Source: Escherichia phage vB_EcoM-813R1
DNA: 64,000 nucleotides
Sequence record: ON470617.2
Reading direction: 5' to 3' (one strand)
In this document: positions 56,228-57,013 of the stretch, in pieces
How positions within the stretch are numbered: the first letter of the stretch is position 1
How the letters are laid out: each line of letters opens with the position of its first letter
Program-made: the position numbers and the translations under genes
The notes under the pieces: model-generated
The model's database searches: none
What the model was told of the DNA's origin: nothing
The model's input: only the letters and a program-made list of their open reading frames with translations

Positions 56228-57013
56228 GCATTCACCGCAACGGAAAGAGCATTCTTGGTGGACCTGTAGATTGGGATATGAACCCGTTACAGGAGAATGC
56301 TCTTACCTGTTACGTGCTCCGTTTCGTGGAGCTAACGGCGGGTGATCGGGCCGCACCAGGCTGGACTTATTTCAGCGTTATGCTCATGCCAGAGAATCAA
56401 ACTGTGATGGTCGGTGCTGAACTCCGACACAGGGTTGTAGCAAGCCCCGCAAAGCGCGCACTACTGTAGTTGCGGCACATCAGCCTGTGCATTCACCACA
56501 ATGTTGAGAACACTGGTTGTCACGCTGCAACGCAACATTTATTCGTAGATTGGGATATGACCCCGTTACGCCAGTGTTCTCAACGTTGTAGTGCCGGTTA
56601 CGGTTCCGGCCAGGCCTCTTCCTCAACGGGGTGTTCTCCATACGGACTACCGTTTATTGGTCGTTCCTGCGGTTTATGTTGTGAAGCCAGATGCTTATCT
56701 TCTGGTTGCTTCAAAGAGCTGCACTTCATCACAACGGTAAGAGCACTCGATGCATTTAAGCCAAGCCCCATAAGGGAGAATGCCCTTACCTGTTGTGTTG
56801 TGATGACCGGTGCTGATCTCCGGCTTGCGGTTATTTCAGACTCTCACGGGCGTTTAATTGCCCCGCCGAACAGCTCTTTTCCGCAATAGCTGCAATGTCT
56901 TTCGCGCATCAGCCTGCGCATTCATCACAACGGTAAGGGTACTTCGTAGGGATTCGAACCCTCTGCCAAGCTCGGCGATCTCCGACGTCGCAAAATACCC
57001 TTACCTGTTGTGC
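56228..57013. repeat. Family of at least four imperfect palindromic (hairpin-forming) elements of ~85-110 bp between upl and tRNA-Thr
   Basis: Copies at about 56228-56317, 56478-56597, 56715-56800, 56907-57013 share arms CAYCRCAAYGGTAAGRGCA / GAATGCYCTTACCTGTTRYG and the left flank CATCAGCCTGYGCATTCA; two loops share GTAGATTGGGATATGAMCCCGTTAC. Confidence 0.7.

Follow-up and report, generated by a model that had tools for sequence, protein, structure and literature searches.

The DNA analysed here, a stretch of 64,000 nucleotides from Escherichia phage vB_EcoM-813R1 (record ON470617.2; hereafter the window), belongs to a P1-type phage, and over positions 56080-57200 it shares 99.8% identity with phage RCS47 and 98.7-99.6% with P1 isolates. 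Three tRNA genes are predicted in the window by ARAGORN, all on the minus strand, and the tRNAs and their neighbouring genes share this strand with the ban operon. According to the P1 annotation (NC_005856), the equivalent stretch lies downstream of the C1-controlled ban promoters, and the order on the ban strand is dicF-like region, trnA, trnT, array region, tciABC, trnI, and ban. The tci genes of P1 are swapped in the window for genes encoding a 70-aa membrane protein and a Band_7/SPFH lipoprotein. The tRNA set itself differs among P1-like relatives, which carry Asn or Arg(UCU), with or without Tyr, then Thr, with or without Ser, and then the CAU tRNA. A promoter scan of 54800-58000 detected no sigma-70-like promoter on either strand. 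The dicF-like region, which ends with an intrinsic terminator (57639-57658, terminator scan), is similar in sequence to the segment immediately upstream of dicF in the Qin prophage, and the Rfam DicF model gives no score on it. Within the ban operon, which is controlled by C1, the array of hairpins described below occupies the long non-coding leader.

On the minus strand, the first half of this leader reads dicF-like sRNA, E0, tRNA-Asn, tRNA-Thr, E4, a spacer unit, and E3, and E3 is followed by a spacer, E2, another spacer unit, E1, and an STnc100-like module, where E0 to E4 are hairpin elements. Bit scores marked R1 below refer to a covariance model that was built from 26 hairpins of lambdoid prophages with no P1 sequence included.

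57622..57723, minus strand: dicF-like region at the head of the ban-operon leader (P1 NC_005856 annotation, mapped by alignment)
57366..57453, minus strand: hairpin E0, upstream of the tRNAs, with arms CAACAGGUAAGGGCGCUG / CAGCGUCCUUUCCUGUUG (R1 25.9 bits, E=6e-5; fold -37.9 kcal/mol)
57092..57167, minus strand: tRNA-Asn (GUU) (ARAGORN; Rfam tRNA 74.5 bits)
57014..57089, minus strand: tRNA-Thr (UGU), with E4 directly after its CCA end (ARAGORN; Rfam 72.9 bits)
56922..57015, minus strand: hairpin E4 (R1 22.2 bits, E=7e-4, closing stem only; fold -41.6 kcal/mol, z -4.2)
56796..56932, minus strand: 137-nt spacer unit between E4 and E3, closed by GUUGUGAUGA...UCAUCACAAC (fold z only -1.1)
56726..56800, minus strand: hairpin E3 (R1 23.2 bits, E=4e-4; fold z -4.6)
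56492..56594, minus strand: hairpin E2, a full three-way-junction member (R1 37.1 bits, E=3e-8, whole model; fold -49.2 kcal/mol, z -5.8)
56396..56514, minus strand: second spacer unit (repeat families; fold z -0.7, structure alone not significant)
56231..56317, minus strand: hairpin E1, a full member (R1 42.2 bits, E=1e-9; fold z -4.1; bulge pattern as in the Qin hairpin)
56119..56239, minus strand: STnc100-like module of several hairpins, with UGCGGUG...CACCGCA as closing stem and a U-run behind it
54939-55014, minus strand: CAU tRNA (ARAGORN)

The initial annotation of this DNA, made from the sequence alone, had described four long imperfect palindromes between upl and the tRNA-Thr and tRNA-Asn genes. 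These four are found again by repeat search and by folding on the minus strand, where their z values range from -4.1 to -5.8 and none of 200 shuffles folds as well, yet they are not the whole set, since a fifth copy, E0, lies beyond the tRNA genes and brings the total in the window to five, all on the minus strand. The shared arms, the common left flank and the loop core of two copies that had been proposed were likewise recovered by repeat search: a left-arm repeat family starts at 56231, 56492, 56725 and 56921, a right-arm repeat is common to 56299, 56782 and 56997, and a 25-nt loop core is 96% identical between E1 (56266-56290) and E2 (56545-56569). The closing stems measure 20-23 bp, about two helical turns, with a one-nucleotide bulge or mismatch, and in E1 and E2 they carry a three-way junction with an inner hairpin that resembles an anticodon arm (GGG-UUCAUAU-CCC at + strand 56269-56287 in E1, GGG-GUCAUAU-CCC at + strand 56548-56566 in E2). 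The last copy, E4, does abut tRNA-Thr, its first base being the base next to the CCA, and it does hold a T-arm-like hairpin (+ strand 56946-56964), but its closing stem is of ~21 bp and not the 10-bp terminal stem initially seen. E4 contains GAGGGUUCGAAUCCCU, and its inverted-repeat arms GGTAAGGGTACTT/AAATACCCTTACC were located by repeat search at 56932-56944 and 56993-57005. All five elements are retained in the minimum-energy fold of the entire 1351-nt region. The minus strand is favoured by 3.7-9.8 kcal/mol for every copy in the window; strand preference in folding energy is mixed among the lambdoid members, and we therefore dropped G-U strand bias as a general argument for RNA function.

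R1 has exactly five matches in the window, namely E0 to E4 on the minus strand, and the next best score elsewhere is 16.5 bits. It aligns with E1 and E2 over the full model and with E0, E3 and E4 over the closing stem only; the inner module AC-GGG-NUCAUNN-CCC-AAUC is present in the former two and absent from the latter three. For the count of covarying positions we used an alignment of the 26 lambdoid members alone, with explicit structure. It shows compensatory changes in 13 of 36 base pairs and has 91% of its cells paired; no shuffle out of 500 matches the observed values, and slid controls give 1-5 pairs. When RNAalifold was run on a mixed MAFFT alignment of P1 and lambdoid sequences, the inner branch alone was recovered, and the arms were misaligned by two columns.

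The loop core of E1 and E2, ACGGGNUCAUAWCCCAAUC in minus-strand sense, occurs in more than 120 viral contigs, mostly lambdoid. The lambdoid hairpin is ~96 nt long, has arms that differ from those of the P1 copies, and lies directly after the terminator of a DicF-related sRNA and before genes of yfdP or rdgC type. Lambdoid-type members all fold as a three-way junction on a closing stem of 20-23 bp, in which the first branch is the conserved module and the second branch is variable. The stretch of phage mEp460 comprising DicF-like sRNA, hairpin and yfdP is matched in 2493 of 5426 complete E. coli genomes, and no non-coding RNA is annotated at this stretch in the matched genomes. K-12 lacks the hairpin at its CPS-53 yfdP, so that no K-12 data apply to the yfdP copy. 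In other Enterobacterales, R1 scores 88-106 bits in Kosakonia, Atlantibacter, Mangrovibacter, Enterobacter, Phytobacter, Buttiauxella, Trabulsiella, Citrobacter and Mixta, and 47 bits in Yersinia. A scan of genome contigs with a 16-base motif returned mostly chance matches outside Enterobacterales, and R1 has no match in most of the non-enterobacterial loci checked. One contig labelled 'Chryseobacterium' scores 90 bits with R1 and probably reflects contamination or transfer.

The Rfam scan called for by the initial annotation (55800-57800, E up to 10) returned no family for the five hairpins; it found the true tRNAs, a sub-threshold STnc100 match beside E1, and chance matches to microRNA precursors, which on the hairpins are explained by hairpin shape alone. 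Other known classes of repeat were also considered. Dispersed repeats of the REP, ERIC or MITE type were rejected, as the 64-kb window holds no other copy and the loci whose surroundings were read are P1-like plasmids or prophage early regions. Integron attC sites were rejected as well, as the arm ends GTTGTGA, GTTGCGG and ATTGTGG do not fit GTTRRRY, and no integron integrase is annotated in the inspected stretch of P1 NC_005856. Some of the 3' arms, not all, contain UGCUCUU(A), which may resemble boxA. The hairpins belong to a family placed between stable RNAs in early operons of enterobacterial temperate phages, a family that has not previously been described as such and is without an Rfam entry.

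The segments between the hairpins are also shared with other phages. The 137-nt spacer unit shares 98% identity with a segment found in mEp460, Stx and Klebsiella phages, and its mEp460 counterpart lies between another hairpin of the family and the DicF-like sRNA. The second spacer unit has both ends in common with it, a GAAUGC-hairpin start and a CGGAG..CACCG-CAUCACA end. In each hairpin the 3' arm, GUUGUGAUGA, finds an alternative pairing partner, UCAUCACAAC, at the end of the next spacer, so this arm can pair in two ways and the neighbouring structures compete for it. At 56119-56239, the Rfam STnc100 model (RF02076) scores 37.8 bits, below its gathering score of 47, and it scores a likewise sub-threshold 34.4 bits on the Qin dicF-dicB spacer (1133-1342); both sequences fold as domains closed by a long-range stem. 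The STnc100-like module is a homologue of the Qin dicF-dicB intergenic module, and the P1 region is a mosaic of modules that are also used in lambdoid early-left leaders.

In 13 P1-like loci and the window, a hairpin follows the CCA end at once at 20 tRNA-Thr or tRNA-Ser junctions, and these junction hairpins fall into seven types whose arms differ and yet are complementary (z down to -8.3). No such hairpin follows the CAU tRNA. By gene order, strand and the lack of promoter-like sites, the stems stand between functional RNAs of one transcript, and the earlier suggestion that the elements are co-transcribed with the tRNAs holds in the form of co-orientation inside one operon.

Experimental data on two relatives bear on the role of the stems. 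An RNase III site behind the 190-nt DicF of the Qin dicBF operon was reportedly described by Faubladier in 1990. The Qin prophage of K-12 carries a family member (positions 873-958 of our contig L125) that R1 detects weakly (17.6 bits, E=0.005 in 20 kb) and that has the same bulge pattern as E1. According to Ragunathan et al. 2023 (bioRxiv 10.1101/2023.04.14.536235), the 190-nt DicF is lost in the absence of RNase III, the enzyme whose cut forms its 5' end. Going 190 nt upstream from the DicF 3' end as annotated (L125 1135) leads to position 946, inside the 3' arm of the Qin hairpin; this cut position is derived from the gel size of 190 nt and is ~6 nt off the position matching the end of sRNA-17, the second relative. 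For Qin, the Gordon 2017 supplement gives a single RNase III-dependent site, which is between dicF and dicB, and RNase III has been held responsible for a 72-nt DicF 3' end (PMC9438474).

sRNA-17 of E. coli K1 RS218 was determined to be 193 nt long by 5' and 3' RACE and Northern blot (PMC7719688). Its 'full length' primers start at CGUUGUGGUGAAUGCGCAGG (CGUUGUGGUGAAUGC) and end at the DicF-like terminator (PMC7719688 supplement), and through these published primers it maps onto mEp460 from 2637 to 2445. The 5' end of sRNA-17 lies in the 3' arm of the upstream mEp460 family hairpin, a few bases from the stem foot. In the window this position corresponds to the C of CGUUGUGAUGAAUGC in the E4 3' arm (+ strand 56932), and window 56932-56796 is 98% identical to the initial 137 nt of sRNA-17. 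The authors (PMC7719688) take transcription of sRNA-17 to begin at this 5' end, from a dedicated promoter under ArcA control; their RACE does not distinguish primary from processed ends.

This study documents the structures, covariation, family membership, position and recombination products of the elements. We consider that they are probably RNase III processing stems, and cutting of the P1 copies is inferred from homology with their relatives. In the proposed scheme, each closing stem would be cleaved by RNase III close to its foot, on both strands. Cleavage of the 5' arm would give the tRNA ahead of it a short trailer, a few nucleotides beyond CCA, that exonucleases could trim; cleavage of the 3' arm would set the 5' end of the unit that follows (CGUUGUG...). 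One tRNA precursor and several small RNAs would result from the transcript. A side effect is that the arms, being nearly identical, serve as substrates of homologous recombination, through which hairpins and tRNA cassettes are gained, lost and exchanged among P1-like phages. The initial annotation had offered processed small RNAs, tRNA-like decoys, and RNase processing or attenuation signals as options; among these the processing signal is the best supported, through homology to the RNase III-dependent site of Qin and through the RACE-mapped end in RS218.

Processing by RNase III leaves unexplained the strong conservation of the inner hairpin in E1, E2 and the lambdoid members. The core of this module, GGGCUCAUAACCC, is identical to the anticodon arm of the E. 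coli metZ initiator tRNA; the likeness comprises the three marker G-C pairs and the loop CUCAUAA, and the loop core shared by E1 and E2 resembles the initiator tRNA anticodon arm, not a T-arm. GGG-NYCAUNN-CCC is kept in 56 of 64 distinct hairpins. The CAU tRNA of P1 itself has a different anticodon stem.

It has to be asked, then, whether functional sRNAs that mimic parts of tRNA are formed by the hairpins, or by fragments set free from them, serving as decoys for tRNA-cleaving toxins or as binders of the 30S P site, IF3 or MetRS, with the stem as a scaffold or release device. This we regard as unlikely. Besides the identity to metZ, it would account for the exact 13-mer seen in 89 of 121 loci that had been sampled through the 3' arm alone, for the occurrence of one and the same inner module in three unrelated scaffolds, and for the constancy of the module while the stem beneath it covaries; in addition, the neighbouring cargo is a variable tRNA set (Asn, Tyr, Arg, Ser, Thr and Ile2 across P1-like loci), and E4 presents a T-arm. 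However, loops CUCAUUC, CUCAUUA, CCCAUAA and CCCACCA also occur, which means that positions 37-38 vary and that the loop is not strictly kept, and one lineage has a compensated GUG/CAC stem together with a different loop. Only three of the five stem pairs of a real anticodon arm can form, tRNA detectors and the Rfam tRNA and YrlA models give no score on the elements, and E0 and E3 are without a tRNA-like part. Another hairpin, of the L012 type, that follows tRNA-Thr in two contigs contains UUCGACU, but leaves it unused in the predicted fold, from which a T-loop-like helix is missing. Our literature search found no paper on an initiator-tRNA mimic or on P1 RNA processing at this site. The more specific idea that an initiator anticodon-arm mimic released by RNase III acts on translation initiation or as a decoy for nucleases cleaving initiator tRNA, for instance VapC-type PIN toxins, which with the variable tRNA cassettes next to it would make the ban leader an RNA-only counter-defence island, appears quite unlikely.

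Recombination between the repeats has left several products. Reference P1 is without window positions 56748-56920 (173 nt, part of E3 and the spacer to E4), the breaks falling within the E3 and E4 left arms; contig L077 carries a chimera of E2 and E1 joined within their shared loop core; and 13 nt of the inner hairpin of E1 are missing from phage Ro157c2YLVW. Could the arms then act primarily in DNA, as module boundaries or linkers that promote exchange of tRNA and sRNA cassettes, with RNA folding being incidental? The P1 deletion with its breaks in repeated left arms and the L077 chimera would fit, as would the five different hairpin types adjoining tRNA-Thr across phages, the insertion of tRNA-Ser, tRNA-Tyr and an ORF at unit borders, and the 98% identity of the 137-nt unit between P1-like and lambdoid phages. 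But recombination needs direct homology, and what is kept here, by compensatory changes and G-U pairs, is pairing. Since pairing and not mere homology is conserved, recombination is less likely as the primary function. The inner module is, moreover, asymmetric (~100 bits sense versus ~34 bits antisense), and RNA ends fall inside the stems in two relatives, Qin and RS218. A primary role at the DNA level is therefore distinctly unlikely, while the repeats demonstrably lead to recombination between arms, which is compatible with RNase III processing.

That the elements are decayed tRNA genes, left behind as cassettes were lost, is very unlikely in spite of their location within a tRNA cluster and of the T-loop-like and anticodon-loop-like hairpins inside some copies. 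ARAGORN and Rfam RF00005 (E up to 10) detect nothing on the elements and only the three true tRNAs, the 20-bp arms are unrelated to acceptor stems, the elements are under structural selection, and the same elements are found in lambdoid phages at tRNA-free sites.

A role of the elements as attenuators or terminators, or as put-like antiterminator RNAs, in controlling read-through to ban is most improbable. The leader is long, and real terminators do accompany the stable hairpins in it. None of the five hairpins, however, is followed by a U-tract (the 3' flank is GUGAUGAAUGC), which leaves the attenuation signal of the initial annotation unsupported; a terminator scan of the minus strand calls none of the elements, and the lambdoid copy lies after a terminator, not before it. 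The put RNAs of HK022 offer a precedent for structured leader elements, but put RNA is a ~70-nt two-stem V shape without a long closing stem (PMC9378689).

Finally, it is hardly credible that the region codes on the + strand for the proteins Upl and Plp, which the P1 reference (NC_005856) annotates on the array and to which ORFs of 109 and 139 aa (+ strand 56140-56469 and 56470-56889) correspond in the window, given that these ORFs have no Pfam match, run antisense to the operon without a promoter-like site and contain repeated peptides (VDWDM.., ENALTC..) that track the DNA repeats, as the initial annotation had pointed out in calling them repeat artefacts, that plp overlaps trnT, that relatives differ by 173 nt (P1) and 13 nt (Ro157c2YLVW), neither a multiple of three, and that the NCBI pipeline calls no CDS among the P1-like E. 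coli matches listed (1494 matching records). The start codon of Upl, ATG, is simply the CAU of the E1 loop read in antisense. Both upl and plp are probably artefacts of the P1 reference annotation.

If RNase III processing is the function of these stems, the reference annotation of a model phage would have to be corrected, with upl and plp replaced by non-coding RNA structures, and an RNA family would be defined that stands beside a DicF-like sRNA in nearly half of all complete E. coli genomes and in many other Enterobacterales. It would also provide a testable account of how phage tRNAs, DicF and sRNA-17 are excised from early operons, and would explain the fast turnover of tRNA cassettes among P1-like plasmid prophages. 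The copy of the initiator arm, for its part, could point to a contact of phage RNA with translation initiation or with a tRNA-targeting toxin.

Among known systems, the closest is the site of the 190-nt DicF in Qin, which has a homologous hairpin with the arm theme ..AAC.G.GAAAGCGCA / UGCGCUUC.CG.GUUG.. in common with P1, and in which, as in P1, ~130 nt of spacer unit precede a stable RNA of a phage early operon. The single Qin copy is decayed and has a degenerate inner module, whereas P1 has five copies in series, interleaved with tRNAs; the Qin literature describes the cut and not the hairpin as a conserved family. sRNA-17 continues into the DicF-like sRNA and its terminator, whereas the corresponding P1 unit continues into hairpin E3, and its authors regard it as a primary transcript and leave the hairpins unmentioned (PMC7719688). 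The put elements of HK022 are set apart from the hairpins by architecture and by position, being located just after the promoter and exerting their effect on terminators further downstream. RNAs that present a copy of a tRNA part are known from the thrS operator and the bacterial Y RNA YrlA; mimicry in the inner hairpin is by comparison limited to three G-C pairs plus the loop. YrlA itself (RF02553) was rejected as a candidate, its sole match (25.6 bits, gathering score 69) being on tRNA-Thr/Asn and not on the hairpins. The early mRNA of T7, the lambda N leader and the stalks of rRNA operons all have RNase III stems of ~20 bp with small internal loops between functional units. The P1 and lambdoid elements have no sequence relationship to these stems, and differ from them in the conserved inner three-way junction of P1 and lambdoid members and in the abutting of tRNA CCA ends in P1-like phages. 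RNase III processing stems of phage operons are already known; the hairpins would be new members of this kind, and their tandem, tRNA-linked arrangement is new.

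In the window, tciA, tciB and tciC of reference P1 are replaced by two other genes, and an STnc100-like module is found immediately upstream of them:

55042-56085, minus strand: 275-aa Band_7/SPFH lipoprotein (Pfam, 1e-30) and 70-aa membrane protein
56119-56239, minus strand: sub-threshold match to STnc100 (Rfam, 37.8 bits)

The STnc100-like module is terminated by a U-run directly upstream of the gene for the 70-aa protein, and its homologue is the dicF-dicB spacer of the K-12 prophage Qin, in which an RNase III-dependent site has been recorded.

The plus-strand ORFs overlying the hairpin array (window 56140-56889, and 1659-2228 of the reference P1 locus, L001) are annotated as upl and plp in the P1 reference, where plp overlaps trnT. 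In RCS47-type annotation, the same names refer to other genes, located on the minus strand at 55873-56085 and 55042-55869. P1-like phages also differ in their tRNA cassette, as seen in contigs L012, L021, L023, L074, L076, L106, and L114: the first position is taken by Asn or by Arg(UCU), an optional Tyr(GUA) precedes Thr(UGU), and Ser(UGA) may or may not come after it. These tRNA species (Asn, Arg, Tyr, Thr, and Ser) are targets of known anticodon nucleases.

Of the 26 lambdoid members of the hairpin family, 24 preserve a one-by-one mismatch halfway along the closing stem (alignment A2, columns 13/108). The 3' arms of the lambdoid hairpins contain UGCUCUU(A/U/C), a motif reminiscent of boxA. 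A conserved GGAGAAACUAACC lies 3' of the lambdoid hairpin, for example at 2306-2350 (minus strand) of the mEp460 locus L004 and in L016 and L036, and is followed by a small UGCAG-loop hairpin upstream of the real ribosome-binding site. R1, the covariance model built from the 26 lambdoid-prophage hairpins, gave a weak palindromic match on both strands at window 27459-27500 (16.5 and 14.1 bits). An enterobacterial-type hairpin (90 bits) was observed on a contig labelled Chryseobacterium sp. 18061 (L200 3331-3449), and probably reflects contamination or recent transfer.

In mEp460, the antirepressor gene is adjoined by Rfam matches to isrK (67 bits) and C4 antisense RNA (L004 4980-5137), the latter scoring 44 bits and running off the locus end. 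Directly after the CAU tRNA, the minus strand of the window at ~54830-54938 reads UAUUUGGUUGUAACACGGCG ... CCAGGUAGCCGGAAUGUGC, and comparison by eye suggested a close likeness to the segment with which the early-left leader of mEp460 begins (L004 ~2780-2890). In PMC7719688, this mEp460 segment served as the 'sRNA-17 promoter' fragment, sRNA-17 being an RNA of E. coli RS218.
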